Source of the DNA: an uncultured Clostridia bacterium
Lineage (GTDB): Bacteria > Bacillota > Clostridia > Oscillospirales > Ruminococcaceae
NCBI GenBank assembly: GCA_946533615.1
Contig: CAMNBY010000320.1
Span: 1 to 38,454 of the forward strand
Length of the DNA stretch: 38,454 nt
Reading direction: 5' to 3'
The notes beneath the pieces were generated by a model that was given only the letters and a program-made list of their open reading frames with translations, did no database searches and was not told the origin of the DNA. Below are positions 4,344 through 36,527 of the stretch, one piece after another. The first letter of the stretch is position 1; the number at the start of each line of letters is the position of its first letter. The translations under genes were made by a program, and so were the position numbers.

Positions 4344-5279
4344 GTGTCAGGATTTATAGCTGAATTCTTTGGATATAGCGCCGAGGATACTTCTTCAATT
4401 GCAGGTTCGACTGCTGCACGACAGATATGTCCTTTTTTAGGAAGTCAGTGCACAAAAATACTTTCGCGTGACAGAATTGCTGCCGGTGTTTGTGCCGTAA
4501 GACAAAAGACTGAAGGTTCTCCTGATGTTATTTGTTGTCCCATTAGAATATATGCTGATGATTATAAAATGTTAAAAACAATAACGTCCAAGGCATTTAA
4601 TGCAGATATGAACCTATATGCGGGAAGAATCGCAGTTCAAAAAGCCAAAGACGAAGGAGGAGCAATCGCCGTTTTTGGACATGGTTGGGGCGGAGAGTTG
4701 CGATTGCCACAACGTAAAGGCACAGGATCCTATTTTGTAGATTGGGTTCTTGCCAGATTAGACGAGAATGGTGAATTAGTAGAGTTCACCGCAATTGAAG
4801 TTCAAACAATTGATACTACCGGAAATTATCGTACGGCACGAGAAAATCTTTTAAATGGACGGCACATTACCAGTGATACAGTCGGATTAAACTGGGAAAA
4901 TGTATCTAAAAGGATTATACCTCAACTGATATATAAAGGACAAGTGCTTCAAAGAGAAGACTTATGTAAAACAGGTCTATATTTTGTGTGCCCACAGCCA
5001 GTCTATGAAAGAGTATTAAATCGTCTTGGCGGAAAAGAAAAAGTGCCCATATTTCCTTCGCAACCTGCTTCAATCCATTTTGTTTCATACGATTACTTAA
5101 ACGAGGATAAGAATGATGGTACGATTCGTCCATTAGGAATCATAGAGGAACATTGCACAACTGTTTACAAGGTACAAGAAGCATTCTCTTCCCTCAATCT
5201 GCCAGAAGGGAATGTTTATCGTGATGCTATAAGGTTTTCGCTGTATGGCAATGAAGATAATACACCCTCTTCAATATGA
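4344..5279 (+). CDS. NotI/EagI-family type II restriction endonuclease
   Basis: Cys4 metal site (CPF..CTK, GVC, CCP), D...EVQ catalytic motif, IDTTGNY, LNWENV; GTG start 2 nt after MTase stop. Confidence 0.85.
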   Translation: MSGFIAEFFGYSAEDTSSIAGSTAARQICPFLGSQCTKILSRDRIAAGVCAVRQKTEGSPDVICCPIRIYADDYKMLKTITSKAFNADMNLYAGRIAVQKAKDEGGAIAVFGHGWGGELRLPQRKGTGSYFVDWVLARLDENGELVEFTAIEVQTIDTTGNYRTARENLLNGRHITSDTVGLNWENVSKRIIPQLIYKGQVLQREDLCKTGLYFVCPQPVYERVLNRLGGKEKVPIFPSQPASIHFVSYDYLNEDKNDGTIRPLGIIEEHCTTVYKVQEAFSSLNLPEGNVYRDAIRFSLYGNEDNTPSSI

Positions 5280-5315
5280 TACCTCACAACTAATTAACCT
5301 AGCTAGATTAATGGC

Positions 5316-5498
5316 GTGTATGCTCGCACTGCATACGAACAGCAGCAGGGTATCTGCCCAATATGTAAAAAGCACTTTGATTTCGAGAAAATGCACGCCG
5401 ATCATATCACACCCTGGCACGCAGGCGGTAAGACCGTTCCGGAGAATTTGCAGATGCTTTGCAGGGATTGTAATTTGAAGAAGTCGGGGCAGGAATAA
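5316..5498 (+). pseudogene. HNH endonuclease C-terminal remnant (resembles the tail of DUF262/GmrSD-HNH proteins)
   Basis: CPIC..ADHITPW..GG.T..NLQMLC..CN motif, only 60 aa, no clear RBS. Confidence 0.65.
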
Positions 5499-5520
5499 TA
5501 GAATATATAGTCGAATTCCC

Positions 5521-5549
5521 TTGAAATAATACGGGTATTGTGGTATAAT
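5521..5549 (+). promoter_or_regulatory. Sigma-A promoter of ATPase-TOPRIM gene
   Basis: TTGAAA-17bp-TATAAT with TGn. Confidence 0.7.
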
Positions 5550-5627
5550 GTAGATATACTTGATAACTGCGTTGTTTCAGGGGATTTTTTGCCTATTTGT
5601 TACTTAAAAACACAAGGAGGAGTTAAA

Positions 5628-20934: not shown

Positions 20935-20970
20935 AAAAAGGCTGCGCAGAAATGCTCTGCGCAGCCTTTT
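20935..20970. terminator. Bidirectional terminator
   Basis: AAAAAGGCTGCGCAGA / TCTGCGCAGCCTTTT. Confidence 0.85.
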
Positions 20971-20989: not shown

Positions 20990-21214
20990 TTACAAAGAAT
21001 TGAGCTTCTTTTGCAGCTCGATCATGTGGTTGCGGCAGGCGGTTATCTCGCCGGTGTACTTGTTGAACCACTCGACGTCCATTTCGTCAGGCTCCTCCTG
21101 CAAAAGCACGGCCTGCACCAGCGCCGACTGGGAACGCGAGCGCTTACGCTCTATCTCCTCGATGGTCTGGCGGCAGATCTTGATCTCCTTTTTAAGCTTT
21201 CTCTTCTCACTCAT
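20990..21214 (-). CDS. Small helical hypothetical protein, last gene of the minus-strand operon
   Basis: GAGGAG RBS, host-like codon use, ends at terminator. Confidence 0.75.
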   Translation of the reverse strand: MSEKRKLKKEIKICRQTIEEIERKRSRSQSALVQAVLLQEEPDEMDVEWFNKYTGEITACRNHMIELQKKLNSL

Positions 21215-21229
21215 GCTGCGAACTCCTCT

Positions 21230-21682
21230 CTAATTCCCTTTTAGGTCGATGCTTTCGATGACAGCCTCCAGCTCATCATAGCCCTTGTCGAGCTCCTCGA
21301 TGATATGGTCAATGGCTGTTTTTACCCCTTCCATCTTTTCCTGCATCTGCTCGGGATACTTTATCAGGCAGGTGTTCAGCTCGTTTATGATCTTCTGCCT
21401 GTCTTCAAAGTCGTTTATCAGGAACGCAAAGGAATTTGCGCCGCTGACATAGCTTGACGCCCGCCGATAGATCAGCTGATGATCGCCCTCGGGTTCAAGG
21501 AAGAAGCCGATCTCCTCGCTGGCGTGTTTCAGCTCGGTCATATACTGGCTGCGGTAGGTCTCCTGAACGCGGCGGGTCTCGTCGATATAAAGCCCGATAA
21601 AAACGGCAAGAGCGATAAACGCGATAAGCATCAGCACGATAGCTGTTATCATTCTACGCTTCATTATCTTCTCTTGATTCAT
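21230..21682 (-). CDS. Single-TM hypothetical protein
   Basis: AAGGAG RBS, N-terminal TM, overlaps upstream gene by 29 nt. Confidence 0.8.
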   Translation of the reverse strand: MNQEKIMKRRMITAIVLMLIAFIALAVFIGLYIDETRRVQETYRSQYMTELKHASEEIGFFLEPEGDHQLIYRRASSYVSGANSFAFLINDFEDRQKIINELNTCLIKYPEQMQEKMEGVKTAIDHIIEELDKGYDELEAVIESIDLKGN

Positions 21683-24632
21683 CCGTCTTCACTCCTTTGG
21701 CTGCAAGATCCTGCTGTGCCAGCCTCAGCTTTTCCTGCTCGATAGCTGCACGCATAAGGCGCTTGTGTTCCGCCTCGTTCTCGCGGCGTTTCTCGTCAAG
21801 CGCTTCGCCGCCAAGCCTTGCAATGCTCCTGATCTCGAAGACTGCGCCGACTGCGACCAGGATTATCACCGCCAGCAGCAGTATCTTCCTGACATCGGCA
21901 AAGGTGCCGAGCCAGTTGAAGAACCTTGCTTTTCCTGCATATTTTCCTATTATCTTTTCGGGCCTTACGGGAGCCGAGTCGGGAGTGTCGTTAGGCTCCC
22001 CGTCCGACTTGGTGTCGCCCTTTGTAATAAATGTTCCGTCCTCGCGGCACTCGATTATCCGGTGGGTGACGATCTTGCCATCGACGTCCTCCTGCTCGGA
22101 GTAGAAGGAGATAACGTCCCCTTCCTCGAGCGTATCGGTGTCTGCTTCCTCGGCTATTATATAATCGCCGACGTGTATCGAGGGCTCCATGCTGCCTGTG
22201 ACTACTCTGAGCACTGTCTTGCCGAAGACCTCGGTAGCCTTGCCTCGCGAAGCATTGAACAGCACATAACCGCAGAAGGCGATCAGTGCAACGGTAATCA
22301 CCGCCAGCAGGATATCAATTATCCGCTTTACTCCGCGTTCCGGCTGTTGGTCGGGCTCGGCGGCGGAGTCAGTTTTTTTTTGCGAGACTGCCTGCTTTAT
22401 CTCTATGCGCTGCCTCTGCTTTTCCTTACGCCACCTTGCAAAGCGCTCTATCCTTGAGACGTGATACTCTCTGTAGAGGCGCTTCATCTCCATATCTATC
22501 TCGCGCTGCTGCTCGGCAGTACGCTGAGGCGGAGTATACACAGGCTTCGGCTTGCCCTTGGCCTGCTGCAAGCGCTTCTTCTTGAACTTTCTGTCTTCCA
22601 GATACCTTCGCAGGCGGTACTTGAAGGTTCGCGCATACTTGCGGTAGTATGCCTCCATCTTGTTGCGCTCTTCGGTCTCGCGCTGCTTCTGAGCCTTCTT
22701 TGCTTCCAGCTCTGCGCGCAGCTTTTTGAAGTCGGGGTTGTCCGTATCTGCGGGTATGATATGGAACCAATAAACAAGGATATATCTGATGAGCCTTTCG
22801 AGCAGTCTGACGGGGTTCTTGGAATACTCCCAGCGGATCTCCTCGAAGGGCTTGCTCTCGAAGCGCTGACGCTCTGCTTTGAGGCGCTGGGCGCGTTCTT
22901 TTTCGCGGCGTTCCCGTTCGCGCTTCTGCTGCTCCAGCTTCATGCGGGCAGCGACAGCTCTGGGATCCTCGAACTCGGGCTCGTGCTCCTGTTCGGCGGC
23001 CTCCTCCTCGAGCTGAGCCTTGGCCTCTTCGATCTCGGCCTCGGTGACCTGCTCGTAGGCCTGCTTCTCCAGCTCGGCCTCGTCGGTGCCTGTCAGCTCG
23101 CTCTCGTCCATGCCTTCGGCTTCGCCAAGCTCAGAGCGCATCTTGTTCTTGTTAAGCAGCACACGCTCGCGTTCTGCGGCAGCGCGTTCTTCTTCCTCGC
23201 GGCGGAGGCGTTCCTCCTCCTCAAGGCGGCGCTGCTCCTCGAGCCTTGCCTGACGTTCGGCCTCAAGCCGCGCACGCTCGCGCTCTTCCTCTTCCTGCTC
23301 GCGCTTTTTCTGCTCGATGAGCTCCTGGATACGGCGCTGCTCTTCTTCCTGTTCGAGGCGTATGCGTTCGCGTTCCTCGCGCTTGGCCTCCTCGATGCGG
23401 CGCTGCTCCTCGAGCTTGCGCTCCTCCTCGAGGCGGACTCTCTCGGCCTCTTCCTCGGCCTTGAGCTGAGCCTGACGCTCGGCCTCTCTTGCGGCAAGGT
23501 AGGCTTTTTCGATCTTTATTGCCTCGCCGATCTGGTCAAAGACCTGAGTCATATTGGCGGGCAGCTTCTTTGTCAGCTTGAACTCGCCGTCGGCGGAGAT
23601 ATAGCCCACGGCGGCTTCGGTCTGTATCGCGTAATCCGCGGCGACTTCCTTGTCGAACTGCTTGACGAACCTTGGCACCAGCGGCTTTGAGCGCTTGGTC
23701 TTCAGCTCCTCCATGTCATATCCGTTATTATCGGTATATGAGCGGAAGAGCATGAGGTTCATGACTATCAGCTTATAGAAATCCTCGATGTAGTCGTCCT
23801 CGGGCTTAACTGCGGTGTTTTCGATGTTTATCTCATAGCCGACCTTATCGTAACCGACGATATACTGCCAGAGGGTAAGGCAGGCCTTGAGGTCAACGTT
23901 TTTCATTATGGCGTTGGTACGCATAACGGGAGGGCGGATAAAGGTATTGCCGAGCGTCATGCAAAGCTCGGAGCCCTTATAGCCCTCAATTATTTTTTTC
24001 AGCTTCTCGACGCGCTGCCAGATGGTATAGCCGTTGGCGTCCACGCTGTCGAGGGTCTCCGAGGTCTCGATCTTAAGCTCGATCTTCATTTTGCCGCCAT
24101 AGCCGTCATCCAGCATGGTATCATAGCCGAGGGAGAATACCTCCTCGTCCTTGGCGACCTGCGCCAGCTTTTCGTATCTTGTGTTTATAAATATATACAG
24201 CCTGTCGATGAGCGTGTTCACGAACTTGTTCTCGTATGTGAACATACTCTCTTCTTTATGGACATTGAGTATCTTTGAGGGGGTTATCTTTCCCGTGCGC
24301 TTGTCGATGCTCTGTATCAGATCGGTATGCTGAGCCAGATGCTTGACAGACTCGACGGTTATCTTCCGCGAGCGCTCGATAGGCACGATCTCCTCGACGT
24401 CCTCGATCGTCCTGCTTGGGTTTCTGAGCACGTTATCAACATGGATAAGGCCGTTCTCGATCGCCTCTACCCATGAGACATCTATTGCTTTTTCAAGCAG
24501 CTTGCGGTTAAAGGCGAAGGTATTCCTGCTCTGGTGGAGCAGCGAATCGAGGGAGTCAAACAGCTCATCATCGCCGAATTCGCTTACTGCTGTTTTGAAT
24601 TCATCATACCACTTGCCGTAAAAGCTGTTCAA
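21654..24632 (-). CDS. Fusion: DUF2357 (McrC-like N-terminal domain) + long E/R/K helix + SipW-type signal peptidase I
   Basis: N-term EEIVPIE.SRKIT.ES..HLAQH, PSKILN, TYENKF; C-term TM, VVTGSMEP, VTHRI, TKGD, second TM; TTG start. Confidence 0.8.
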   Translation of the reverse strand: MNSFYGKWYDEFKTAVSEFGDDELFDSLDSLLHQSRNTFAFNRKLLEKAIDVSWVEAIENGLIHVDNVLRNPSRTIEDVEEIVPIERSRKITVESVKHLAQHTDLIQSIDKRTGKITPSKILNVHKEESMFTYENKFVNTLIDRLYIFINTRYEKLAQVAKDEEVFSLGYDTMLDDGYGGKMKIELKIETSETLDSVDANGYTIWQRVEKLKKIIEGYKGSELCMTLGNTFIRPPVMRTNAIMKNVDLKACLTLWQYIVGYDKVGYEINIENTAVKPEDDYIEDFYKLIVMNLMLFRSYTDNNGYDMEELKTKRSKPLVPRFVKQFDKEVAADYAIQTEAAVGYISADGEFKLTKKLPANMTQVFDQIGEAIKIEKAYLAAREAERQAQLKAEEEAERVRLEEERKLEEQRRIEEAKREERERIRLEQEEEQRRIQELIEQKKREQEEEERERARLEAERQARLEEQRRLEEEERLRREEEERAAAERERVLLNKNKMRSELGEAEGMDESELTGTDEAELEKQAYEQVTEAEIEEAKAQLEEEAAEQEHEPEFEDPRAVAARMKLEQQKRERERREKERAQRLKAERQRFESKPFEEIRWEYSKNPVRLLERLIRYILVYWFHIIPADTDNPDFKKLRAELEAKKAQKQRETEERNKMEAYYRKYARTFKYRLRRYLEDRKFKKKRLQQAKGKPKPVYTPPQRTAEQQREIDMEMKRLYREYHVSRIERFARWRKEKQRQRIEIKQAVSQKKTDSAAEPDQQPERGVKRIIDILLAVITVALIAFCGYVLFNASRGKATEVFGKTVLRVVTGSMEPSIHVGDYIIAEEADTDTLEEGDVISFYSEQEDVDGKIVTHRIIECREDGTFITKGDTKSDGEPNDTPDSAPVRPEKIIGKYAGKARFFNWLGTFADVRKILLLAVIILVAVGAVFEIRSIARLGGEALDEKRRENEAEHKRLMRAAIEQEKLRLAQQDLAAKGVKTDESREDNEA

Positions 24633-24675
24633 CCGCTGCTCACCGCCTTTCTTTTTCAGATGTCAGATATCAGTA

Positions 24676-26241
24676 TCAGAACAGCTTCTGCAGTCTCTCG
24701 AGGTATGCGACAGACTCGTTCATCTTGTTCTTTCCGAAGGTCTTGTTGATGTAGACTACCAGCTCGCGGAGCTCGTCACGGAGCATCGCAAGGTTCAGGG
24801 ACTCGAACTTTCTGAAGATCTTGGTCGCCAGAACATAGTCGATACCGTCAAGCTCGTCGCCGCCGCAGGCGACATAAACGGGCACGAACAGACCCATCTG
24901 CTTCAGGATACGGTTACCGAAGGCAACTCTGAGCTTTTCAATTACCCAGAGATCCATCTGCTGTATCTTTTTAAGATTCTCCTGAGAGATAGGATATTTC
25001 TCGAAGGCTTCCTTAAACAGCTTGTCGAGGTGGTCGAAGCCGATATTTATCGGCGGGGTATCGGGTGCATCGAAGGCGATGCCCTTTGCGTCAAGGTTTA
25101 TAGGCTGGGCACGGTCATATACCTTATCGGAGATAGCGTAGGTGGAGTCGTCGTTATTGGCGGTACCTATATACCAGACGTTCTGAGGGATAATGAGCTT
25201 GCCGCGGTCCAGCTTGACAGGGTCGGTGCTCCATACGTTAGGCACGAGGTCAAGCTCCCACTCATCGGCGTTGGGCATTTCGAGAATGGAGAGCATCTCG
25301 GCGAAGTAATACTCGATACGGGCGATGTTCATCTCGTCGAGGAGGATGAAGTTTACATCGTTATTATAGCCCGATGAGTATATCCTTTTGAGGACCTCGG
25401 TCTCGTTGAAGTTCTTGGTGAATTCATTGAAGTAGCCGAAGAGCTCGGTGCGGTCACGCCACGAAGGCTGAACAGATGCGATAGTCGTATCGTTCTGGAG
25501 GAACTTTCCGAAGGAGTAAGGCAGGGACGTTTTACCTGTACCAGAGATACCCTGAAGGATAATGAGCTTTGTAGAGGCCATACCCGCAACAAAGAGGCGG
25601 ATAGTCTTCTTCTCGTAATAGAGGTTCATACGGGAGCAGGCAAAATTCCTGTAGCGGTCGCAGAACTCCTCGAGGGTGATCTCGTTGTCGTACTCAGGCG
25701 GAGTATAATTCCTGTAAAATGCGTCCACCTCGAGCAGGCGCGAGAAGCGGCGGTCTGCGGTCTGGATAACGCCCTCCTCGACGACTGTGGCCTCTCCGCC
25801 TTCGCCGCCCTCGTAGGGCACGGTGCTGCCGTCGGCAAGGGAGAGCGAGCCCGAAACAGGCAGACCCATCTGGGCGACCTTCATGGCCATGATCTCGTCC
25901 TTTTCCTTAGTCATTTTCAGCACCTGCCGCTGCAGGTCGGAGATCTCCTCAAGCAGATCCTCGTTGCTGACGATGGAGTGGCGGAAGCGCACATACTTTC
26001 TGACGGCGAGAATGATGATGAACGCCAGCAGCAGGTACACCGCAACTACAAGGATCAGCGACAGCACGGCCAGTATCCAGCTCAGCGCAGTAAAATCCGT
26101 TGAGTAGCTCTTGAAGATATCAATATAATTCTTGATATTGAAAATTTGTACTATTCCGTGTCCAATGCCCTTGAAGATAGTGGCAAAGCCCTTGAGCATC
26201 TCGGATATGAACACGAAGAACCATCTAAGAAATCCGTTCAT
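24676..26241 (-). CDS. Membrane-anchored McrB-like AAA+ NTPase
   Basis: N-terminal TM and coiled coil; GISGTGKT, VQPSW, LLDEMN.ARIEYYF, GTANNDD (McrB NxxD signature), KVYDRA. Confidence 0.85.
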   Translation of the reverse strand: MNGFLRWFFVFISEMLKGFATIFKGIGHGIVQIFNIKNYIDIFKSYSTDFTALSWILAVLSLILVVAVYLLLAFIIILAVRKYVRFRHSIVSNEDLLEEISDLQRQVLKMTKEKDEIMAMKVAQMGLPVSGSLSLADGSTVPYEGGEGGEATVVEEGVIQTADRRFSRLLEVDAFYRNYTPPEYDNEITLEEFCDRYRNFACSRMNLYYEKKTIRLFVAGMASTKLIILQGISGTGKTSLPYSFGKFLQNDTTIASVQPSWRDRTELFGYFNEFTKNFNETEVLKRIYSSGYNNDVNFILLDEMNIARIEYYFAEMLSILEMPNADEWELDLVPNVWSTDPVKLDRGKLIIPQNVWYIGTANNDDSTYAISDKVYDRAQPINLDAKGIAFDAPDTPPINIGFDHLDKLFKEAFEKYPISQENLKKIQQMDLWVIEKLRVAFGNRILKQMGLFVPVYVACGGDELDGIDYVLATKIFRKFESLNLAMLRDELRELVVYINKTFGKNKMNESVAYLERLQKLF

Positions 26242-26260
26242 AGCTTTCTCCGATCAAATA

Positions 26261-26986
26261 TTATTCCTCAGTTTTTTCAGAGGTTTCCTGCTTGTTATCG
26301 TCGCTGTCGGGCTGCGCCGCTTCGTTTTTTTCGTCAGCCGCTTGTTCACCCGAGGCCTCGGCCTCCTTGGCCTTCTGGCTGGCTATGTACTCCTCGACGG
26401 CTCGGCGCTTGATCTCCTCCTCGTCGTCCTCGGTGATCGAGGGGCGCTTGATCTCGATGAGGGTAGCGATGAACTTATAAAGCTCGAAGAGGAAGAAGAG
26501 CGCCATTGGGATAAGTATGCAGATGAAGAAGCCCTTCTGCGTTCCGAGGAAGCGCATCACCTTGCCGAACCCGGGGATCCTTGAACCTGTCCACTTGCCG
26601 ATGATATCGGCGGGCTTGACGCTTGTGGAGTCGTCGGTGGGGTTGTTGTCGCCTCGTGTGGTGAAGCTGAGAGTGCCGTTCTGGTCGTCTATATCGACGA
26701 TCCTATGCGTGTTCTTCACGCGCTGGCCGTCAATGTACGTCCAGAAGGTAATGACGTCGTCCTCTTTCAGGTCATAGACGTCGTCCACCTCGCGGCAGAT
26801 TATGAGGTCATCGGTCTTGAAGGTGGGCTTCATCGAATCCGACTCGACGGTCAGGGGAATAAAGCCGAAAAGATTTGCGACGCCGTTGTTTCTTCCCGTG
26901 GAAAATACCACCAGGGTGACCAGCAGCGCAAATATCAGCAGCACCCAGGCGAGAACGTTGACTACGATTTTAAGTACTTTTTTCAT
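26261..26986 (-). CDS. sipW: SipW-type (ER-type, Ser/His) signal peptidase I
   Basis: TM, VESDSMKP, NTHRI, TRGDNN, IIGK, second TM. Confidence 0.9.
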   Translation of the reverse strand: MKKVLKIVVNVLAWVLLIFALLVTLVVFSTGRNNGVANLFGFIPLTVESDSMKPTFKTDDLIICREVDDVYDLKEDDVITFWTYIDGQRVKNTHRIVDIDDQNGTLSFTTRGDNNPTDDSTSVKPADIIGKWTGSRIPGFGKVMRFLGTQKGFFICILIPMALFFLFELYKFIATLIEIKRPSITEDDEEEIKRRAVEEYIASQKAKEAEASGEQAADEKNEAAQPDSDDNKQETSEKTEE

Positions 26987-27008
26987 ATCCTTAACTCCTT
27001 AACTCAGA

Positions 27009-27746
27009 TCAGGTGGTCTCTGTTATCTTAAAGTCCATCGAGAGCTTCAGCGTTCCGCCGATAAGCTCATCGACACAGTCGGGGTCGTTGCCCTCGAGCC
27101 AGATAACTACCGTATATTTATCCTTGGCCTTTGGCTCGAAGTCCTCGCGCTGGTTCCGCATTACGATCGTTGAGGAAAGGAACTCGCTGTCACAGTCGCC
27201 CTCCTTGCCTGAACCATCTGACTTCGTTTTGCCGTAGACGGTCTTTTCGCCGTTGTAGTAGACGGCGATCCTCACAGCCTCGTCAACGTTCTTGGTAACA
27301 TTTTCTATATTCATTTCGCCCTCGTAGGAGAGGGTATCGCTTCCCGAATTGATAAGGTAGAAGGTATAAGCGATGTAGCTTTCGCCGTTATGGCTGCCGT
27401 TTATCATGTCGATATTATCGGGCAGGTCCTCGCCGCTGATATTGGTCATATCGTAGACTATATCGGCATTCAGGGTCGAGATGGTCTTCTCGAACTCGGG
27501 AGTTTCCGAGAGTGTCAGTCCCTGCCGCATCATATCATATTTATTCACCTTTACGGTAAAGCTTCCGTATTTATCATAGAAATACGAGATAGCGTAGGCG
27601 ATGGCGATGATCGCGACGAGTATTATCACAAGCAGTCCAAGTATCCTTGTAATAATAACGTATCGCTTGACCTCCTTGGCCGAACGGCGGAGCTCAAGGA
27701 CATCGACCATTTTGCCTGACCTTGGTTCCTGTTTCTTGTCACTCAA
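27009..27746 (-). CDS. Membrane-anchored protein homologous to the TasA-like subunit at 28790-29836
   Basis: One TM; shared motifs YTFYL, VRIAV, WLEGNDPDC; TTG start after AAGGAG. Confidence 0.7.
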   Translation of the reverse strand: MSDKKQEPRSGKMVDVLELRRSAKEVKRYVIITRILGLLVIILVAIIAIAYAISYFYDKYGSFTVKVNKYDMMRQGLTLSETPEFEKTISTLNADIVYDMTNISGEDLPDNIDMINGSHNGESYIAYTFYLINSGSDTLSYEGEMNIENVTKNVDEAVRIAVYYNGEKTVYGKTKSDGSGKEGDCDSEFLSSTIVMRNQREDFEPKAKDKYTVVIWLEGNDPDCVDELIGGTLKLSMDFKITETT

Positions 27747-27805
27747 AGCAGATTCTCCTTTGTATGTGAATTTGGTATGTTCCGAGCCCTGCGGCTCGGG
27801 TGGTA

Positions 27806-28564
27806 TTATTGATCCTCGTTTTTGCGCCTGATGTAGCGCTCGGACATATAGTTCCCTACGAGGGCGCCTGCACAGTAGTTGCAGCCGAAGCTGTAGAGCT
27901 GCTCGGCCTGTTTTGCACTGCGGACGCCGTCGGCGACGGGGATAGCCTCCAGCTCGGAGACGAAATCTATGATCGACTTCACTGCGCCGTCGGAGCGCTC
28001 GCTGCGGCCGAGGAACTGTGTCACCTCGGGAGAGAGCATAACGTAATCCACGTCGAACTCCGAGAGCTTCATCATCGGGCAGGAGTCGGAGCCGAAGCCC
28101 GTGAGCATAAAGTGAAAGCCCTTGTTCCTGAGGTTCAGCAGTGTTCTTGCGGCCTTGCCGTCGCTCTGTTCAAGCAGCTTTGCCGAAAGCGCGAAGCACA
28201 TCTTGTTGGTGTTGACCTTGAAGCGCTCGCAGAAGCCCATGATGTTATATTCCGCGCGGGGGTTTTTCAGGTAATCTGCGGGCATATAGACCGAGAGCCA
28301 GTCGAAGACGATCTCGCGCTCGGTGAATTTTGCGCAGGCCTCGAGAGCCTGGACGAGTTCGAGCTCGAAGAGGGAGATACACTGGTTTGTGATCTCGGAG
28401 ACATCGCGGAAGCTTTCGGGCATCATGACGCCGAGCGCAGGAGTATTAAGTCTTGTCTGAGACTGTAGGAATGCGGTGCTGCCGCTTGAGATCTCTCTTA
28501 TAACGCGGTAATAGAGCTCAACGGCTCTGAGTCCGCCTACGGTAGTCTGAACTTCCTGTTCCAC
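27806..28564 (-). CDS. Degenerate stand-alone EAL domain protein
   Basis: EAL scaffold with EAL>QSQ, DDFGTG>TGFGSD, EGVE>DGVR, QG>AG; GTG start after GGGAGG. Confidence 0.8.
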   Translation of the reverse strand: MEQEVQTTVGGLRAVELYYRVIREISSGSTAFLQSQTRLNTPALGVMMPESFRDVSEITNQCISLFELELVQALEACAKFTEREIVFDWLSVYMPADYLKNPRAEYNIMGFCERFKVNTNKMCFALSAKLLEQSDGKAARTLLNLRNKGFHFMLTGFGSDSCPMMKLSEFDVDYVMLSPEVTQFLGRSERSDGAVKSIIDFVSELEAIPVADGVRSAKQAEQLYSFGCNYCAGALVGNYMSERYIRRKNEDQ

Positions 28565-28606
28565 GCTGCACCTCCCGATGATTTTTAAGCACAGATACTC
28601 TATTCT

Positions 28607-28635
28607 ATTATACAACATATTCACTAAAATGTCAA
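28607..28635 (-). promoter_or_regulatory. Consensus sigma-A promoter of the EAL-SipW-McrB operon
   Basis: TTGACA-17bp-TATAAT on minus strand. Confidence 0.8.
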
Positions 28636-28722
28636 TTATTTGTGGGCTGTATTTTAAGTAATTTATAATAAATCACAATGTTTGTATAAAGAATTGTACC
28701 ATAATGTTAAAAAAGCGGGCAT

Positions 28723-28754
28723 AAAAAAATCCCCCGGACTTGTGATCCGGGGGA
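28723..28754 (-). terminator. Terminator of TasA-like gene
   Basis: TCCCCCGGA / TCCGGGGGA stem followed by T7 on minus strand. Confidence 0.8.
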
Positions 28755-28789
28755 CATGGTTGTTTAGTTAGTTAAGTTTTAAGCTTTGA

Positions 28790-29836
28790 TTACGGAGCAG
28801 CAGTAGCACCTGTGCCACCTATTGCAGTATCCTGGAAAGTTACATCAACCAGATAGGTATCAAGAACCTCTGTGAGGTTATCAGATTTACAATTGGAATC
28901 TTCACCTTCGAACCAAAGATAAACGTATACCGGGGTACCTTCGTGGTTTGTAGCATCTCCGGTTACAGGAGCAATGGTTACCTCACCACCGATATTAACA
29001 GATGCAAATGCAGTTTCTCCAGTTTCACTTCTTGTAATTGTAGCAGCTTGCTTAGTAGTTCCTTTAGCATCTTTTGTAACGTCATACGATGTATCGCCAC
29101 CAAGAGGTGCAAAAATAGCATAGTTACTATCATTATACTTAACACCTACACGAAGCGACTTATCAAGATCCGTGCTTATCTTTTCGGTTTCAGTGTTCTT
29201 CTTAGTAACCTTTACTTTAGCCTGAAGTGCATTCTGAGCAATGCTTAACGTACTTTCACCTGATGATTTAAGATAGTAGGTATACTTTACATAGAATCCT
29301 TCGCCGTTATTATACTCACCTGCTGTACCGAAACTTGCATCTTTATAGAACACATTGGTTTCAGCCTTTGTATTGCCTGCAGCATCATTCGCAGCTACAA
29401 GGTCATACTTTGTCGCCTGTGTACCGCTGGCACTTTCGTCAATTACAATATATTTGTTGCCACTTGAATCAACATCAACGGTCTTTGTGGTGTTATCCAC
29501 ACCTGCTTCAATACTTGACTGCATCGAGTTAGCGTGCCACCAATTAGAAAGGTTATAAGTAGAAGCAGGTCTCAACGAAATAGCCTGATTAAGTTCAGTC
29601 TGACCACCTGTTGCCTCTTCGTCCCAGTGGGTGTCATTAGCGGCCTTAACTTCGTTGATGAGCAGGCCCTCTTCAGCGTGGGCCTTAACTTCCATACCGG
29701 TTACTTTAACTTCCTTATTCATTGTGAACCATGCGTAAGTCGCAGTGGAAAGCATTACTGCGGAGCAGGTCAGCATTGCAATTGCGGGGATAAGCTTTCT
29801 CTTAGCTGATTTGTTGTTAGTCTTTTTCATATCCAT
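28790..29836 (-). CDS. Secreted protein with SipW-dependent signal peptide (TasA/CalY-like fibre subunit candidate)
   Basis: KRKLIPAIAML..SAVMLSTATYAWFT signal; beta-rich mature part; start may be ATG 29830. Confidence 0.8.
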   Translation of the reverse strand: MDMKKTNNKSAKRKLIPAIAMLTCSAVMLSTATYAWFTMNKEVKVTGMEVKAHAEEGLLINEVKAANDTHWDEEATGGQTELNQAISLRPASTYNLSNWWHANSMQSSIEAGVDNTTKTVDVDSSGNKYIVIDESASGTQATKYDLVAANDAAGNTKAETNVFYKDASFGTAGEYNNGEGFYVKYTYYLKSSGESTLSIAQNALQAKVKVTKKNTETEKISTDLDKSLRVGVKYNDSNYAIFAPLGGDTSYDVTKDAKGTTKQAATITRSETGETAFASVNIGGEVTIAPVTGDATNHEGTPVYVYLWFEGEDSNCKSDNLTEVLDTYLVDVTFQDTAIGGTGATAAP

Positions 29837-29925
29837 TTTCCTTTCATAATTTATTTCGTATCCTACATGGCCGAGTGGCCGATCACTCTTTGGCCTATGC
29901 TTTACGATAGTAATTCTATGCTATT

Positions 29926-29954
29926 ATTATATACGATTTTCCTCGATTTGTCAA
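29926..29954 (-). promoter_or_regulatory. Consensus sigma-A promoter of TasA-like gene
   Basis: TTGACA-17bp-TATAAT on minus strand. Confidence 0.8.
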
Positions 29955-30184: not shown

Positions 30185-31363
30185 TTACTCCTTATCCTCT
30201 TTCCTCTTCTTGACCGTCAGGGTGATGATACCGCCCAGAACAGCTGCGCCTGCAACTGCGGGGCCTGCAACAGAGACCATAACGCCTGTGGGGACAACGC
30301 CCTTCTTCTCGTTGGTGTAGGTAACGGTGGTGTCGCCCTTGATGGTATCGGTGAACTCACCTGTGAGCTTATCATCAGCTTCCGTGGCTGTGCCGTCTGT
30401 GTCGTCGCCTGTAGGGACGATACTTTTAACGGTGTAATCCTCGAAGTTCTCTGTGATAGTGTACTCAGCGCCGTCGGGCAGACCCGTGATCTTGATGGAC
30501 TCGCCGTGCTGGAGCAGAACGGTCACGTTTGCTGTGCCGTCTGCGCCGCAAACGATGGCGTTCTCGCCCGAGGGGTTAGTACCGCTCACGGTGGTAGCAC
30601 CGTTTGTGTCTGCGGTGATCTCGGCGGTGGTGGCGTTGGTGGTGTCAACGTTCAGCTTTGTGCCGCTGCCTGCGTTTGAGATAGCAACGGTGAACGAGAA
30701 GTACTTATCCTTCGATGCCTGGTTGCCCTCGACGCTCTTTGCGATAGTCAGGTCGTGGGAGTTGTAGGTGTTTGTATAGCCTGTGGACTTCTCAAGCGCT
30801 GTTGGATTCTCGCTCTTTTCGGGGCTGTCCTCGCACCTGCCGTTTCTGAATGTGGTACCGGCGATCCCAAGCTTGCCTGTGCCGTCGTCCTGAACGTAAA
30901 CATCAAGGGTACGGACAGGTGTGGCATCGTTGGTAAATGCTGAATTCTCGGTAGCAGTCTCGGTGATGTAATAGCGGTAAACGCCGGGCTCTGAGAATTC
31001 AACGCCCGTAAAGCTAACGTTCACGGTCTTGGATTTCTCGGCGTCTCCTGCTGCAAATACCGCATCGGATACTGTGGGGAGCGCAGTGGTGGTGTAGATA
31101 GGCAGCGATGTTTCGGTGCCTGCCTTAGCTTCGGCCTGTGTTACGGTGAATTTGAACGTAACTGCGGGAACGTTCGCGTCTTCCTCGACTTCAAGAGCCT
31201 TTGTGAAATCGTAGGTGGTCTTATCCTCAAGCTTATAGGTGATAGCGGTATACTTATAGGGGGTGTGTGTTTCGGGCGCCTCTGATGCAAACGCAGACAG
31301 AGACATCATTCCTGCTGCGAGAGCAGCAGCAGCAAAGCCTGCAAGGAGTCTTCCCTTCTTCAT
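30185..31363 (-). CDS. Sortase-anchored pilin-like surface protein (Spy0128/T-antigen-like)
   Basis: Signal peptide, FSEPGVYRYYITE, LTIAKSVEGN, YTITE, YTN, C-terminal VPTG + TM + KKRK; ATG after GGAGG. Confidence 0.75.
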   Translation of the reverse strand: MKKGRLLAGFAAAALAAGMMSLSAFASEAPETHTPYKYTAITYKLEDKTTYDFTKALEVEEDANVPAVTFKFTVTQAEAKAGTETSLPIYTTTALPTVSDAVFAAGDAEKSKTVNVSFTGVEFSEPGVYRYYITETATENSAFTNDATPVRTLDVYVQDDGTGKLGIAGTTFRNGRCEDSPEKSENPTALEKSTGYTNTYNSHDLTIAKSVEGNQASKDKYFSFTVAISNAGSGTKLNVDTTNATTAEITADTNGATTVSGTNPSGENAIVCGADGTANVTVLLQHGESIKITGLPDGAEYTITENFEDYTVKSIVPTGDDTDGTATEADDKLTGEFTDTIKGDTTVTYTNEKKGVVPTGVMVSVAGPAVAGAAVLGGIITLTVKKRKEDKE

Positions 31364-31600
31364 AATATTACCTCCGTTTTGAAAGATGATACAACGGCGC
31401 TGCTTCCGCAGAAAAACACCGGTAGTTATACAATTTAATTTTAACACGCTGCAAGGCATTCGTCAAGCCCTTTTGCAAAAATAATTAACATTTTGTGTAT
31501 ATTCCGTTTCAATCGCCAAAACAAAGGGGGAATTTTTGTTAAAAATGATAACTCGTGTAAAAAGAAGCGGCCAAGGCCGCTTCCTGTTTTATAGTCGTTA

Positions 31601-33892
31601 TTACTTTCCGAAGGCAAAGGCCTCGAAATCCGCGAGGGGCATGGGTCTTGCGAAGTAATAGCCCTGGAAAAGGCGGCAGCCCATATCCGCAAGCTGGGTA
31701 TACTGCGATTCGGTCTCGACGCCCTCGGTGAGCGAGGCTATATCGAGCTCGTCCGAAAGGCGGATAATGTTCCTGACGATCGTCTTTGCCTTTTCCCTGC
31801 TGCCCGAGGAGGAGAGGAATTTCATGTCGATCTTCAGCACGTCTACCGGCATATCCTTGAGCAGGTTCAAGGAAGAAAAGCCGCTGCCGAAATCGTCCAT
31901 TTCTACAATGAAGCCTGCCGAGCGAAGCTCCGCAAGAGTCCTCATACGCTCTTCCTGATCGTTCATCATGATGCTCTCGGTGATCTCTATGCGCAGCTTG
32001 CGTGCCTCGAGGCCGTACTCTTTTATCAGCGCTTTCAGCTCGGCGGCAACGTCAAAGAAATAGAAATCCTTCGGCGAGATGTTCACGGAGATGAACAGGT
32101 CGTCATGGCTGCCCTTCCAGTCCGCAAGTATCTTGCAGGCACAGCGCCACATATGCTTGTCCACCTCGGAGATCATGCCGTTCTTCTCGAAGACGGGAAT
32201 GAACATGAACGGCGGCATGAAGCCCTGCTCCGGGTGTATCCAGCGAGCCAGCGCTTCGGCGCCGACTACCCTTCCGCTGCTGTCGGTGATCGGCTGGAGA
32301 TAGGGGCGGATCTGCATGGTGTCGATGGCCTCGCGCAGGGAGGCTGTTATGGTCTGATCCCAGAGCACCTTGTCGCGGAGCTTGTTGTCATAGTACGCGA
32401 TATGCGTGCCGTACTCGTCCCTGATCGTTGACAGCGCAAGGTGAGCCCTGTCGAACATAACAGAAACGTCGATGTCGCGCTCCGTTACCTCATACACGCC
32501 CAGCTGCACCAGCAGGTGGTGCTCCCTTATGCCGTCGGAGACCGTAAAGGCCGAAAGCTCGGGCTCGATCAGGTGCTTGTCCTCTTTGTATTTCTCGGAG
32601 GGCACGAAGATGCCGAAGGTGTCTCCTGCCAGCCTGCCGTAGACGCAGCGCTTATCCATATCCTTCTCTATCCAGCGAGCCAGCTGGCAAAGCGCCTTGT
32701 CGCCGAACTCAGAGCTGAAAATATCGTTTACCACCTTAAAATCCTTTACGTCCACAAAGACGGCGGTGTAAAGGGTGTCGGGGTTCTCGTCCACTACCTT
32801 CCTCACGGTGTCGTAGAAGTGCTGCTTGGTGTAAAGACCCGTCAGGCTGTCGTGGGTCGAGTTGTAAAGCTCGCGCCTGAGGCGCTGCTGCTCGTCGGTG
32901 TTGTCGCGGATAACGAGGAACGAGCCCGCAAAGTGCTTGCTGTCGGCGGAAACGTTATGGCTCTCGATGGTGAAATATCTTGCGTGTTCGCCGAAGCCGA
33001 CTATCCTTGTTTCGACCCAGTCGTCCCTGGAAAATTCCTTTTCGCCGAATATCGTCCTGAGCGAGCTGCTGACACGCTCAAGGTGTTCGAGGTCTGCGTG
33101 GGTCAGCTCGCGGGCGGGCTTGTTCAGCCAGATGCAGTTGCCCGCAGGATCATAAACAAAAAGCGCGTCGGGCAGGTCGGAAACTATATCCGAGAGCATT
33201 CTGTCAAGCAGCTTCATCGGCCTGTGCCTCAGCGAAAAATAGAACACCAGCACTCCGCACACGCCGTAGCCGATCATCGAGCGGTCAACAGGTGTCCGCG
33301 AGAAGACATAGAAGGTCTGCCACACGCCGACTGCTATCATCGAAGTGAGAATGACCGAGAATCTCTCGCGGTATATCTTGGCTGTTTTAAGCACCGCAAG
33401 GACGTAGATCAGGATAACGCAGAAGAAAACGAAATAGATCGTGATGCGGTGGATTATCTGTCCTGCATGGGGAACGACGGAATAATAGGGCTTGCCCTGG
33501 ACGTCCACGGGCTCGAGCCCGAAGGCGTGGCCGAAGAACGGGTTCAGCAGCATCTGAACGGCATCGGCGGCAAGCAAAACGTACATGATCGTAGGCCGCT
33601 GCTGGCCGTTGCCGATGCCGCGGCAGTACTCGTTTGTAAAGTTGACCAGCGCCGCGATAACAATATCCATGCCGATCAGATAGATATAATATCCCCAGAC
33701 GGCACGGCTCTCGACGCTTGAACCAAGGATAATGCAGTTGCCGAGCAGCGGCGGCAGCAGGGCGAATTCAAGCAGACCCACAGCCTTGCCTATGGGCTTC
33801 TTTGACCTCAGCGCCTGCACTGCACAGACCACGAGCAGCAACGCAAGGAAGGTCATTATTGCCGAAAAGGAGACGCGGATATTAAGACTCAT
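31601..33892 (-). CDS. Membrane (~7TM) PAS-GGDEF-EAL protein, likely c-di-GMP phosphodiesterase
   Basis: Degenerate AGDTF; intact EAL, EITE, DDFGSG, KID, EGVE, QG. Confidence 0.92.
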   Translation of the reverse strand: MSLNIRVSFSAIMTFLALLLVVCAVQALRSKKPIGKAVGLLEFALLPPLLGNCIILGSSVESRAVWGYYIYLIGMDIVIAALVNFTNEYCRGIGNGQQRPTIMYVLLAADAVQMLLNPFFGHAFGLEPVDVQGKPYYSVVPHAGQIIHRITIYFVFFCVILIYVLAVLKTAKIYRERFSVILTSMIAVGVWQTFYVFSRTPVDRSMIGYGVCGVLVFYFSLRHRPMKLLDRMLSDIVSDLPDALFVYDPAGNCIWLNKPARELTHADLEHLERVSSSLRTIFGEKEFSRDDWVETRIVGFGEHARYFTIESHNVSADSKHFAGSFLVIRDNTDEQQRLRRELYNSTHDSLTGLYTKQHFYDTVRKVVDENPDTLYTAVFVDVKDFKVVNDIFSSEFGDKALCQLARWIEKDMDKRCVYGRLAGDTFGIFVPSEKYKEDKHLIEPELSAFTVSDGIREHHLLVQLGVYEVTERDIDVSVMFDRAHLALSTIRDEYGTHIAYYDNKLRDKVLWDQTITASLREAIDTMQIRPYLQPITDSSGRVVGAEALARWIHPEQGFMPPFMFIPVFEKNGMISEVDKHMWRCACKILADWKGSHDDLFISVNISPKDFYFFDVAAELKALIKEYGLEARKLRIEITESIMMNDQEERMRTLAELRSAGFIVEMDDFGSGFSSLNLLKDMPVDVLKIDMKFLSSSGSREKAKTIVRNIIRLSDELDIASLTEGVETESQYTQLADMGCRLFQGYYFARPMPLADFEAFAFGK

Positions 33893-35228
33893 TCACCTCA
33901 CCGTCCCTTCTGCCCGAGCTTTTGAGGTCCTTCTTGTTCTGATACATCCTGCTGTCGGCAAGCTCGAAGACCTCGCTGACAGAGCTGTGAGCTGCAGGGT
34001 CATAGACAGCCATTCCCGAGGCGATAACAGGCTCCGTCTCGCTGCCCGAGTTTTTTGCGACCTGAGTGCGGAAGGCTTCGAGCAGCCTGCGCCGTTCGGA
34101 ATAATCGTTCTTTCTCAGCAGGACAGCGAACTCGTCGCCGCCGATGCGAAAAACGGTGCTGTTCGGGAAGCTGCCGCTGATAAGTGCTGCCGCCGCTTTA
34201 AGGTAGCTGTCGCCTGCCTTGTGGCCGCGCGTGTCGTTTATGGTCTTGAGGTTGTTCAGGTCACAGATGAGCAGGGCGAAGGGCTGGCAGATGCCGCCGT
34301 CGATCATCTCCTGAAGCTCGGACTCCGTGTCCTGATAGGCGTTTTTGTTCTTCATGCCCGTGAGCTCGTCGGTCATGGCCTTTTCAAAGGCTGTCCTGAA
34401 CTCGGTCTCGCGCCTGTGCTCCTCGTCGATGTCCTCAACGCCCACGATGATATGGCGGCGGTCGTTCGCCCACATCACGGACAGGCGCGTGTATCTGTAG
34501 GCATTGTTTATCAGAAGGCGGTATTCGAGAGTGAAATGCCGCTCCAGCTTCAGCCTTCTGAGTATGCGATGCTTCAGTATCTGGTCGAGCACGTCGTCCC
34601 TGTCTTCGGGATGCACATAGCGCGTGATGTTCCTGAAGGACTCCACAAAGAAATTATCGCCCTGCTTCGGTATGGCAAGCTGCTCGTACTGGTCGCCGGA
34701 GCTGAACTCGTTATACTTGTTGCTCTCGGAATCGACGTAATAGATCAGGTCGTAGCGCGAGGCAAGGCTCTGTGCGATCTGGTTGAAGACGAGCCTCTCG
34801 CTGCCGAGGCGTTCGGCCTCCTTGCGCATACGCATTTCCTTGTCCACGTTCCTGACGCCGATTATGAAATAGTTATCGTCGCCGCCGGTGCTCCGGATCA
34901 GCCGCAGCTCGTGATAGACGAATTTTCCGCCGAGGAATAGCCTGTAGGTATAGCTTTGCAGATCTCCGCTCACGGCTCCCCTCAGCAGATTCTCCTTCTG
35001 GATATCATGCTTGAAGATATGCCAGTCGTCGGGGTGGACGACTTTTTCGGCTTCGGTTATAAGGCCGCGGAAGAAATCCTTACCCTCGGTGTCCTTTTTC
35101 AGCGTGCGGAGCTCCGGATCCATGGAATAGGTGATGTAATCATTTGTCGCTCCGTCCACATAATATATATCGGAATAATCACAGAGCAGCGCCTCCGCGA
35201 TCGTATTGAATATCTTGTCATTATTCAA
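33882..35228 (-). CDS. PAS-PAS-GGDEF diguanylate cyclase
   Basis: Two VHPD/ED PAS repeats, DELTG, NDTRGH, RIGGDEF; TTG start after GGGAG. Confidence 0.92.
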   Translation of the reverse strand: MNNDKIFNTIAEALLCDYSDIYYVDGATNDYITYSMDPELRTLKKDTEGKDFFRGLITEAEKVVHPDDWHIFKHDIQKENLLRGAVSGDLQSYTYRLFLGGKFVYHELRLIRSTGGDDNYFIIGVRNVDKEMRMRKEAERLGSERLVFNQIAQSLASRYDLIYYVDSESNKYNEFSSGDQYEQLAIPKQGDNFFVESFRNITRYVHPEDRDDVLDQILKHRILRRLKLERHFTLEYRLLINNAYRYTRLSVMWANDRRHIIVGVEDIDEEHRRETEFRTAFEKAMTDELTGMKNKNAYQDTESELQEMIDGGICQPFALLICDLNNLKTINDTRGHKAGDSYLKAAAALISGSFPNSTVFRIGGDEFAVLLRKNDYSERRRLLEAFRTQVAKNSGSETEPVIASGMAVYDPAAHSSVSEVFELADSRMYQNKKDLKSSGRRDGEVNES

Positions 35229-35396
35229 GCAAAACACTCCCGATGTGCAAATTGTACAATTTTCCAATATATAGTATAACACATTTATTTCAGTTTTGCA
35301 AGAGCGCAGCAAAAAGCTTTACATTTGACATAAGATATGGTATAATTTATAATGTTGGAGTATTATCTCCGACAATAAAGAACAAAGGATCTTAAC

Positions 35397-36527
35397 ATGA
35401 ACCTACAGTCGATAATAATCACAAACTGCCTTGGCTTTGCAATGATGCTCGTGCTGCTGATAAGCAGCTACATCGTCAGGCGGCAGCGCCGGGACAAGGA
35501 CAAGGTACACACTGCGCTTATCCTGCTGACCGCATCGGGCTGCTTCACCGAGATGTACACTTATCTGGTTGACGGCAGGCACTTTGCGGGCGCAAGGCTT
35601 CTGAGCTACATAGGCAACACCTGGCTTTTCTTTGCAAATATCTCGGTGGCGTTTTTGTGGTGCATCTATACCGATCTCAGGCTCTACCAGAAGCCCGAGA
35701 GGATCAAGGAGGGTTTCCTAAAGCTCTCTGTGCCTGCGCTGGTGTTTTTTGCGCTGCTGCTGCTCAACCTGCCGCTGCATTTTGTTTTCAGCATCGACGC
35801 CGACAATGTCTATCACCGTGAGGCGGTGGGCTACGCCTTCTATCTGCCGACACTGGGCTATCTTTTCTACAGCCTTGTGCTGCGCGAGCGCTTTGTACGC
35901 AGGCACGGAAGGCTCGAGTTCTTCCCTATCTGGATGTTCCTGACGCCGATATTCATCGGAGCGACGGTGCAGGCCGTGATCTACGGCATATCCGTCGGCT
36001 GGTGTGCCACGGCTCTGGGTCTGATCGGAATGTATATGAGCGAGCAGAACGAGCTGAGCTACGTTGACCCTCTGACAAGGCTCTTCAACCGCAGCTATCT
36101 TGACCACAAGCTGCTGGAATACCGCCAGAACGGAAAACGCGCAGGCGGCCTTATGATAGACATCGACTCCTTCAAGGCGATCAACGACCGCTTCGGGCAC
36201 ACCGTCGGCGACAGGGCGCTGTCCGACACGGCGGGTATACTTTCAAGGGCTGTGCCTCCCGATGCGCTGTGCATCAGGTTCGCGGGCGACGAATTCGTTG
36301 TGCTCCGCAAGGACAGCAGCCTTGAAATGATGAACGAGATAAAGGAGGCCGTGCTGATCGAGCTTGATCGCTTCAACTCCGAGAATGAGCGGCCGTTCGC
36401 GCTCTCGCTCTCGATAGGAGCCGCCAGCAGCGACCTGACCGCCGACAGCAACGACACGTTCCTAAACGCTATGGACAAGAGGATGTACGAGATGAAGCGC
36501 CTCTCTCACGGAACGGAAGTGCGGTAA
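35397..36527 (+). CDS. Membrane GGDEF protein (AGDEF variant)
   Basis: Multiple TMs, DPLT.LFNR, DIDSFKAIND.FGH..GD, RFAGDEF. Confidence 0.92.
   Translation: MNLQSIIITNCLGFAMMLVLLISSYIVRRQRRDKDKVHTALILLTASGCFTEMYTYLVDGRHFAGARLLSYIGNTWLFFANISVAFLWCIYTDLRLYQKPERIKEGFLKLSVPALVFFALLLLNLPLHFVFSIDADNVYHREAVGYAFYLPTLGYLFYSLVLRERFVRRHGRLEFFPIWMFLTPIFIGATVQAVIYGISVGWCATALGLIGMYMSEQNELSYVDPLTRLFNRSYLDHKLLEYRQNGKRAGGLMIDIDSFKAINDRFGHTVGDRALSDTAGILSRAVPPDALCIRFAGDEFVVLRKDSSLEMMNEIKEAVLIELDRFNSENERPFALSLSIGAASSDLTADSNDTFLNAMDKRMYEMKRLSHGTEVR

Follow-up and report, generated by a model that had tools for sequence, protein, structure and literature searches.

A CoCoPALM operon joining a nuclease-free, membrane-anchored McrB-McrC pair to SipW peptidases and TasA-like proteins probably builds a cell-anchored fibre

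Introduction

What is a restriction-type motor doing at the membrane, among genes for signal peptidases and fibre-like proteins? The question is raised by eight minus-strand genes that an open reading frame (ORF) scan and the sequence itself place between positions 20990 and 29836 of a 38,454-nt stretch (contig CAMNBY010000320.1, assembly GCA_946533615.1) from an uncultured Clostridia bacterium of the family Ruminococcaceae. The whole stretch is hereafter called the window. Seven of the genes form a putative operon, encoding, in order, a catalytically dead EAL protein, a membrane-anchored TasA-like protein (TM245), the signal peptidase SipW1, an McrB-family nucleoside triphosphatase (NTPase), a fusion of a DUF2357 (McrC-like) domain with a helical segment and a second peptidase (SipW2), and two small proteins of 150 and 74 amino acids (aa). 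The eighth gene, immediately upstream, encodes a 348-aa exported protein (Tas348).

An earlier interpretation made from the letters of the window alone (the sequence-only reading) took this arrangement for a candidate new system in which the McrB-DUF2357 pair serves a surface fibre, with a membrane-sensing defence system as the alternative. The claim of novelty does not stand: Bell et al. 2024 (PMC11090510) had already named the architecture CoCoPALM, characterized by fusion to an FtsB-like transmembrane (TM) and coiled-coil segment, linked signal peptidases and coiled coils in both partners, so that the literature describes such a locus in part. The sections of that paper that concern CoCoPALM amount to one paragraph and two supplementary rows, with the analysis deferred to a later paper and an HHpred E value of 1.2 for the likeness to FtsB. 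In the open literature (subscription journals being mostly uncovered), we found no follow-up or experimental study of CoCoPALM, and no open paper since 2023 that treats McrB together with TasA and SipW.

Here, we examine the gene content, distribution and variability of the locus. We conclude that the CoCoPALM operon probably builds a cell-anchored fibre from a variable subunit by means of a nuclease-free membrane McrB-McrC pair, two SipW peptidases and TasA-like proteins.

An NTPase pair at the membrane that lacks the nuclease

Family matches, motifs and TM segments confirm the gene identities that the sequence-only reading assigned within the operon. The Walker A (residues 231-238) and Walker B (300-305) motifs of the NTPase are intact, and its best sequence match in the PDB is E. 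coli McrB (E 6.5e-4). The N-terminus consists of an amphipathic segment, a TM helix (62-80, from hydropathy) and a conserved heptad segment with weak coiled-coil matches (about 90-125); a family search with this region returned no match and no nucleic-acid-binding domain. FtsB is absent among the matches listed for the TM and coiled-coil segment, and FtsL appears, weakly, in 3 of the 77 members (best E 0.004). The signature motif N362-N-D-D (362-365) formally reads NxxD, as the sequence-only reading had it, but in alignment it matches the NxD(E/D) motif of CoCoNuT-type GTPases with no gap, which places the protein in the NxD(D) branch.

The quick tree agrees with this assignment. It comprises 53 rows with Shimodaira-Hasegawa-like approximate likelihood ratio (SH-aLRT) support as the only measure and long-branch warnings, and leaves out one truncated row, one row without a Walker A pattern and one unrecovered locus. 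All 18 SipW-linked NTPases fall into a single clade (SH-aLRT 96), which groups with the NxD GTPases, apart from the single NxxD row, itself truncated and on a long branch; another long branch lies between this clade and the CoCoNuTs. A separate observation from the same tree concerns an 827-aa soluble NTPase (locus L144, 8051-12611, genome G425) with a TerY-P-like triad upstream, which groups with the membrane clade and, allowing for the long branch, possibly links CoCoNuT-type and CoCoPALM systems. Altogether, 774 relatives of the NTPase were found at E values up to 1e-30 among 1.84 billion representatives.

The 992-aa partner is composed of the DUF2357 domain, a 225-residue segment rich in Glu and Arg (376-600; 72 Glu, 39 Arg) that its composition suggests is helical, a basic helical region, and SipW2 (770-931, with TM helices at 774-792 and 916-934). 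A PD-(D/E)xK nuclease was detected by Pfam neither in the window partner nor in any of 14 homologous partners, nor in the two partners from a sister group described below; the same search recovers it in 4 of 5 controls labelled CoCoNuT-like. Pfam was used for this purpose because a loose PD-(D/E)xK regular expression is uninformative in Glu/Lys-rich tails. Some partner homologues are only 377-413 aa long, which is too short to hide a nuclease domain. The DUF2357-helix-SipW fusion singled out by the sequence-only reading is present in the window but is not general: 38 of 70 loci have the McrC-like domain joined to SipW2, and the other 32 encode SipW2 as a separate downstream gene. The stimulatory basic residue of McrC (Lys157 or Arg263) could not be placed in the partner, as neither E. 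coli McrC nor any solved structure gave a usable alignment; R152, R207 and K244, each kept by 95% or more of 86 partners, are candidates only.

Among the genes of the window operon, searches of Pfam-type families, PADLOC and PHROGs (0 matches for 6 proteins) found no nuclease, HEPN or known effector family. The two small genes, which belong to no family, might still encode a cryptic effector.

TasA-like subunits and SipW peptidases

Tas348 and TM245 are homologous (hhalign, 98.5%). The signal peptide of the Tas348 family is conserved and ends T-Y-A/W-F in the alignment, which bears out the proposal of a SipW-signal gene immediately upstream of the operon; TM245 has instead a long hydrophobic helix without this motif. 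Neither subunit profile has a relevant sequence match in the PDB, and neither family matches Pfam or NCBIfam. The model of TM245 (predicted local distance difference test, pLDDT, 82) has TasA (8aur) as its top Foldseek match (E 2.1e-4) and also as the top match in a VIA search (Z 7.0, root-mean-square deviation 3.2, 132 residues aligned; next row Z 6.5), in keeping with the earlier description of TM245 as a TM-anchored TasA-like paralogue. Tas348 is modelled as a beta-sandwich (pLDDT 78) with an unpaired N-terminal segment; the archaeal bundling pilin 7ueg ranks first in Foldseek (E 2.5e-4) and TasA 8aur third (E 3e-3). The models are suggestive of a TasA-like fold in both subunits, but at modest scores and not decisively. 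In the monomer model, Tas348 lacks structure over its first 22 mature residues, the state expected of a free donor strand.

Both subunit families also share a conserved C-terminal motif, W-x-E-G-x-D-x-x-C. Its cysteine is the sole one of mature Tas348 and is invariant (Cys174) in TM245; cross-linking, metal binding and lipid attachment are candidate roles.

Both SipW peptidases score above the TIGR02228 cut-off and keep the Ser and His residues (Ser51 and His94, conserved, in SipW1); Ser and His motifs occur together in 195 of 202 SipW-like ORFs. The cytoplasmic helical tail of SipW1 is conserved in the alignment. A third, degenerate SipW-like ORF lies elsewhere in the source genome (G000, contig C53, 2-682; E 1.5e-13). 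Of the operon products, the 74-aa protein shows the highest conservation (median identity 88%); several distant loci yielded no copy of it, and in the ESM Atlas it matches only Bacillota clusters without names.

Conservation and phyletic distribution

In a species-level genome set, 229 stretches encode a relative of the NTPase, the best 80 of which were fetched for synteny counts, each gene being counted over the loci with room for it. The operon is fully syntenic: EAL in 75/75, TM245 in 77/77, SipW1 in 80/80, DUF2357 in 77/77, SipW2 in 70/70, and the 150-aa and 74-aa genes in 67/67 each. Close relatives of the locus are found in Ruminococcus and in some Lachnospiraceae and Eubacterium, which makes it an operon of Ruminococcus-type bacteria of the rumen. 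Full-length NTPase homologues occur in 12 of 399 genomes of a class sample (the source genome not counted) and in 1 of 400 genomes of a phylum sample; in the class sample, SipW lies beside all 12, and TasA-like genes, often several, accompany all 11 with enough contig. Across 61 genomes, the NTPase is present in 17, the subunit family in 19 and SipW in 32, and all 17 NTPase genomes also carry the subunit family and SipW; the 44 genomes without the NTPase yield two subunit matches, one in a genome 74% complete and the other signal-only. The association with sipW and TasA-like genes on which the sequence-only reading relied is supported by these counts.

The locus is patchily distributed, being carried by 5 of the 11 near-complete genomes in the genus, and its flanks vary: 66 upstream genes fall into 33 clusters and 61 downstream genes into 44. 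Many loci carry very large SipW-signal proteins. In a sister group (loci L162, L163 and L164 of genomes G653, G606 and G798), a membrane NTPase and a nuclease-free DUF2357 partner, with a tandem NTPase pair in two genomes, adjoin transglutaminase-like surface proteins of 1,300-1,600 aa.

The operon occurs in cultured strains, namely R. albus 8, AR67 and KH2T6, E. ruminantium FB3002 and R. flavefaciens YAD2003, Y1, MA2007 and MC2020, which makes the named CoCoPALM class testable. The NTPase of what appears to be R. albus 7 is ADU22765.1. The main text of the R. albus 7 transcriptome paper does not mention a signal peptidase, and the supplements consulted for the sheep study contain no signal peptidase rows.

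A variable subunit gene

The sequence-only reading described the operon as host-like in codon style. This is confirmed, with codon adaptation index percentiles of 29-72 (0-6 in a restriction island of the window), but does not extend to the upstream gene: Tas348 has a GC content at third codon positions (GC3) of 0.35, in the 1st percentile. The same disparity recurs across the family, whose GC3 is lower than that of the NTPase of the same locus in all 33 comparisons (means 0.29 vs 0.54), and whose members have a median identity of 35%, compared with 81% among the NTPases. The position of the gene also varies, being upstream in either orientation, downstream, or elsewhere in the genome. High expression was considered as the full cause of the low GC3 and rejected as insufficient, because C-ending codons for Phe, Asn, Tyr and Ile make up 0.58-0.85 in the ribosomal operon and 0.40 in Tas348.

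Replacement is seen in a close relative, where a 19.9-kb contig (run X12) tracks the window at about 96-97% up to and beyond 28735-29708, an interval replaced there by 886 other letters. The promoter lies outside this interval and is retained, as are 43 leading codons that cover the signal peptide and first strand. The incoming sequence would be another allele. A similar break is seen in run X10, from the same study as X12. No convincing recombination or inversion repeats were found around the subunit gene. Taken together, the upstream subunit gene looks like a swappable, variable AT-rich cassette, which suggests strong outside selection by phages, predators or substrates.

A contig from an RNA run carries the window's Tas348 allele at 96%. 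One RNA-run contig spans 28750-29880 end to end at a depth of 78.6, close to the predicted subunit transcript; operon pieces from the same run are short, at depth 3-5, which is a weak hint only, as DNA may be in the library. The RNA runs consist of contigs only, so that expression cannot be ranked.

Links to c-di-GMP

The GTG at 28564, preceded by a ribosome-binding site, is the likely start of the EAL gene, since the listed 272-aa ORF begins inside the promoter. Compared with an intact-motif EAL domain encoded in the window, the protein has lost its catalytic metal ligands (Glu of the EAL motif is Gln54 and the DDFG loop reads TGFG, in 272-aa numbering), as expected of the dead enzyme that had been proposed. 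Arg58 of the EAL motif is kept in 61 of 73 homologues (84%), and the protein is a possible receptor for cyclic di-GMP (c-di-GMP).

A c-di-GMP-I riboswitch was detected in 8 of 32 genomes searched, at most 96 candidates being scored per genome. In five of the eight (G518, G545, G745, G735 and G039), it sits directly ahead of locus genes, either the EAL gene or subunit genes; of the remaining three, two have a locus contig that is cut, and the third has the riboswitch 28 kb away. Three GGDEF or GGDEF-EAL genes are clustered just upstream of the locus in the window (31601-36527). Riboswitches and GGDEF/EAL neighbours together point to control of lifestyle rather than defence.

Model and alternatives

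These observations can be assembled into the following model. Tas348 would be exported, and one of the SipW enzymes would cut its signal at T-Y-A/W-F, by analogy with TasA and BsaA. Released subunits would polymerise at the membrane by donor-strand exchange, as reported for TasA (PMC9674648) and modelled for BsaA (PMC11580942), and TM245, with its membrane helix retained, would act as cap and anchor at the fibre base. Beneath the membrane, an McrB-like hexamer may be held by the TM helix and the coiled coil, with the DUF2357 domain inserted in the ring and stimulating NTP hydrolysis, as in the ring-and-finger cycle outlined for McrBC (PMC7680126). Through the helical arm, this cycle might be transmitted to SipW2 and so set the pace of subunit processing or of fibre release, with the dead EAL protein supplying a c-di-GMP input. 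We infer that the McrB-McrC pair is the cytoplasmic unit that paces or drives the fibre platform. If this is correct, a defence motor has been recycled to build a surface structure, and the fibre encoded here is the first of SipW/TasA type to have an NTPase of its own.

Several observations weigh against this model. No motor takes part when TasA or BsaA polymerises (PMC9674648, PMC11580942), so this kind of chemistry does not require one. The fold scores are modest: the Z score of 7.0 for TM245 is within reach of common beta-sandwiches, and the VIA search with Tas348 gave no clear match (best Z 5.0). The co-occurrence in 17 genomes is partly circular, because loci bearing the NTPase supplied the subunit profile, and the count takes kin as if independent; SipW is present in 15 of the 44 genomes that lack the NTPase, and for 14 of 36 full-length loci a 10-kb search distance revealed no subunit gene. 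Lineages with 377-413-aa partners do without the long helical arm. The window has no Rfam match at gathering score and hence no riboswitch, and three of the five genomes with riboswitches ahead of locus genes (G518, G545 and G745) belong to one genus. Finally, SipW was not found in the 20 kb fetched around the sister-group loci; there the NTPase is paired with giant surface proteins instead, and the job of the motor may therefore exceed fibre assembly.

McrC has been proposed to rotate within McrB. A bolder form of the model, which we regard as speculative and rather doubtful, would make the restriction motor the engine of a new class of pilus, with the McrB ring as membrane-fixed stator, the McrC finger as rotor and the helical arm as a shaft to the signal peptidase, extending, pacing or shedding a donor-strand fibre. 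Such a c-di-GMP-controlled structure, whose subunit strains would swap like an antigen cassette, would serve cellulolytic ruminococci, R. albus and R. flavefaciens among them, as an attachment organelle that has so far gone unrecognised. Digestion of cellulose by R. albus requires attachment to plant fibre, by a mechanism that is incompletely explained (PMC4300822).

Three other explanations share parts of this evidence. In the first, which we consider unlikely, the fibre self-assembles like TasA, and SipW2, governed by the EAL protein together with the NTPase pair, cuts the anchor TM245 and sheds the fibre when c-di-GMP falls; the LapD-LapG-LapA scheme is the model for such a release switch. 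The presence of two SipW enzymes, one of them fused to the McrC-like partner, fits this scheme, as do the A-Y-A at the end of the TM245 membrane helix, the dead EAL gene directly ahead of TM245, and the fact that TasA and BsaA need no motor; but the Ala after Tyr51 of TM245 is less than 90% conserved, and the riboswitches regulate how the locus as a whole is expressed.

The second explanation, to which we assign a low probability, treats the NTPase pair as a general membrane chaperone or export aid that helps large or numerous exported proteins to cross the membrane or wall, or clears signal-peptide stubs, SipW substrates being its commonest clients. It would account for the sister-group pairs that stand beside transglutaminase-like proteins without SipW, and for the very large SipW-signal proteins at many loci. 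The tight synteny of the SipW-linked clade with subunits speaks against it, as does the structure of McrBC, in which the McrC finger occupies the pore (PMC7680126), a feature that disfavours substrate threading.

The third, a membrane-sensing anti-phage system in which the NTPase senses infection and triggers a peptidase or small membrane protein effector, is very improbable: the descent of the NTPase from the CoCoNuT branch of restriction GTPases, its match to the PADLOC candidate model PDC-M26A (E 2e-38) and the patchy distribution with variable flanks would suit it, but the operon has no detectable nuclease or known effector, is host-like in codon usage and single-copy, and has PADLOC matches in only 4 of 77 flanking-cluster representatives, mostly to generic domains (no background rate being available). 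The preference of the sequence-only reading for a fibre over defence is accordingly supported by nuclease loss in 14/14 partners, the TasA-like predicted fold of TM245, co-occurrence in 17/17 genomes and riboswitches in five genomes.

Genomic context

Perfect TTGACA-17-TATAAT sites number four in the window and none in each of 100 shuffles, and two of the four head the transcription units of the locus (Table 1). The upstream promoter serves Tas348 alone, which is followed by its own terminator. The proposal of one promoter, seven closely packed genes and one terminator holds up: intergenic gaps, from 5' to 3', are 59, 22, 19, 43, -29 and 15 nt, and the hairpin at the operon end is shared with a convergent xylose isomerase gene. 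From this layout of promoter, gaps and terminator, the seven genes are probably co-transcribed. All locus genes are single-copy in the source genome, which is 75% complete.

Table 1. Coordinates of the locus features in the window
Feature	Position	Strand	Evidence
Bidirectional terminator hairpin, operon end	20936..20970	.	strong, z -5.3
74-aa soluble protein	20990..21214	-	no family; median identity 88%
150-aa single-pass membrane protein, TM 11-29	21230..21682	-	no family; 67/67 loci
992-aa McrC-N (DUF2357)-helix-SipW2 fusion	21654..24632	-	DUF2357 E 1e-8
McrB-family AAA+ NTPase, membrane-anchored	24676..26241	-	NF008457 E 7e-4
SipW1 signal peptidase	26261..26986	-	TIGR02228 88.8 bits; Ser51, His94; 80/80 loci
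TM245, TasA-like paralogue, TM 35-53, likely base/anchor subunit	27009..27746	-	77/77 loci
Catalytically dead stand-alone EAL, 252 aa	27806..28564	-	PF00563 E 1e-26; 75/75 loci
Sigma70-type promoter, seven-gene operon	28607..28635	-	12/12 consensus
Intrinsic terminator closing Tas348 gene	28729..28755	-	hairpin z -3.4
Tas348, 348 aa, likely major fibre subunit	28790..29836	-	alignment, model, Foldseek
Sigma70-type promoter, subunit gene	29926..29954	-	12/12 consensus

Between the EAL and TM245 genes lies a stable GC-rich hairpin without a U tract (27781-27800, z -4.9) that may stabilise or process the transcript. Directly upstream of Tas348, positions 30185-31459 encode a sortase-type pilin with FctA and DUF7601 domains and a C-terminal sorting-like signal. 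It was considered as a component of the system and rejected, having its own promoter and terminator and homologues in 2 of 80 loci. The pilin is also diverged in a close relative (run X12), where, just upstream of it, 45 letters of the window at 31551-31597 are replaced by 887 others. A low-GC island at 486-7634, 13 kb from the operon and unrelated to it in codon usage, encodes a Mob/Pre relaxase, a DUF2971 protein (PADLOC PDC-S31), a C5 methylase, a NotI-like endonuclease and a 698-aa protein with a Walker A motif.

Comparison with known systems

By the features given in the description of Bell et al. (PMC11090510), the locus is a CoCoPALM operon: it shares the NxD-branch McrB GTPase with TM and coiled coil, the McrC homologue with coiled coil and the linked signal peptidases. 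The exemplar of that paper, RHC33375.1, is not among the accessions listed. As far as the sections on CoCoPALM go, that description mentions neither TasA-like subunits, nuclease loss and the McrC-SipW fusion, nor the dead EAL protein, the two small genes, riboswitch control and subunit swapping. Its authors cite SipA-like pilus factors; in the window locus, both peptidases keep Ser and His. CoCoNuTs, as described in the same paper, share the NxD GTPase branch and coiled coils, with 28-37% identity over the AAA+ domain, but keep a nuclease in McrC or adjacent to it, and none was found in the window operon.

With the McrBC systems of E. coli and T. gammatolerans, as far as PMC7680126 sets them out, the pair has in common the AAA+ motor, the Walker A and B motifs, the signature Asn and a DUF2357 partner encoded directly downstream; it differs in lacking the PD-(D/E)xK nuclease and in having a membrane anchor in place of the N-terminal DNA-binding domain. 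Non-canonical McrB homologues are described as nucleotide-promiscuous in a preprint (bioRxiv 10.64898/2026.08.31.748284), and GTP specificity of the window NTPase therefore cannot be assumed.

The fibre operons tapA-sipW-tasA of B. subtilis and sipW-bsaA-bsaB-bsaC of C. perfringens likewise combine a dedicated SipW with exported beta-sandwich substrates, and TM245 is, in the predicted models, structurally closest to TasA. In the accounts given in PMC9674648 and PMC11580942, however, these operons have no NTPase, a single SipW and no dead EAL protein, and the window subunits have no sequence-level match to solved structures, Pfam or NCBIfam. To the class as it was named, the present analysis adds evidence for a TasA-like fold, the count of McrC-SipW fusions, the riboswitch link and the subunit swap.

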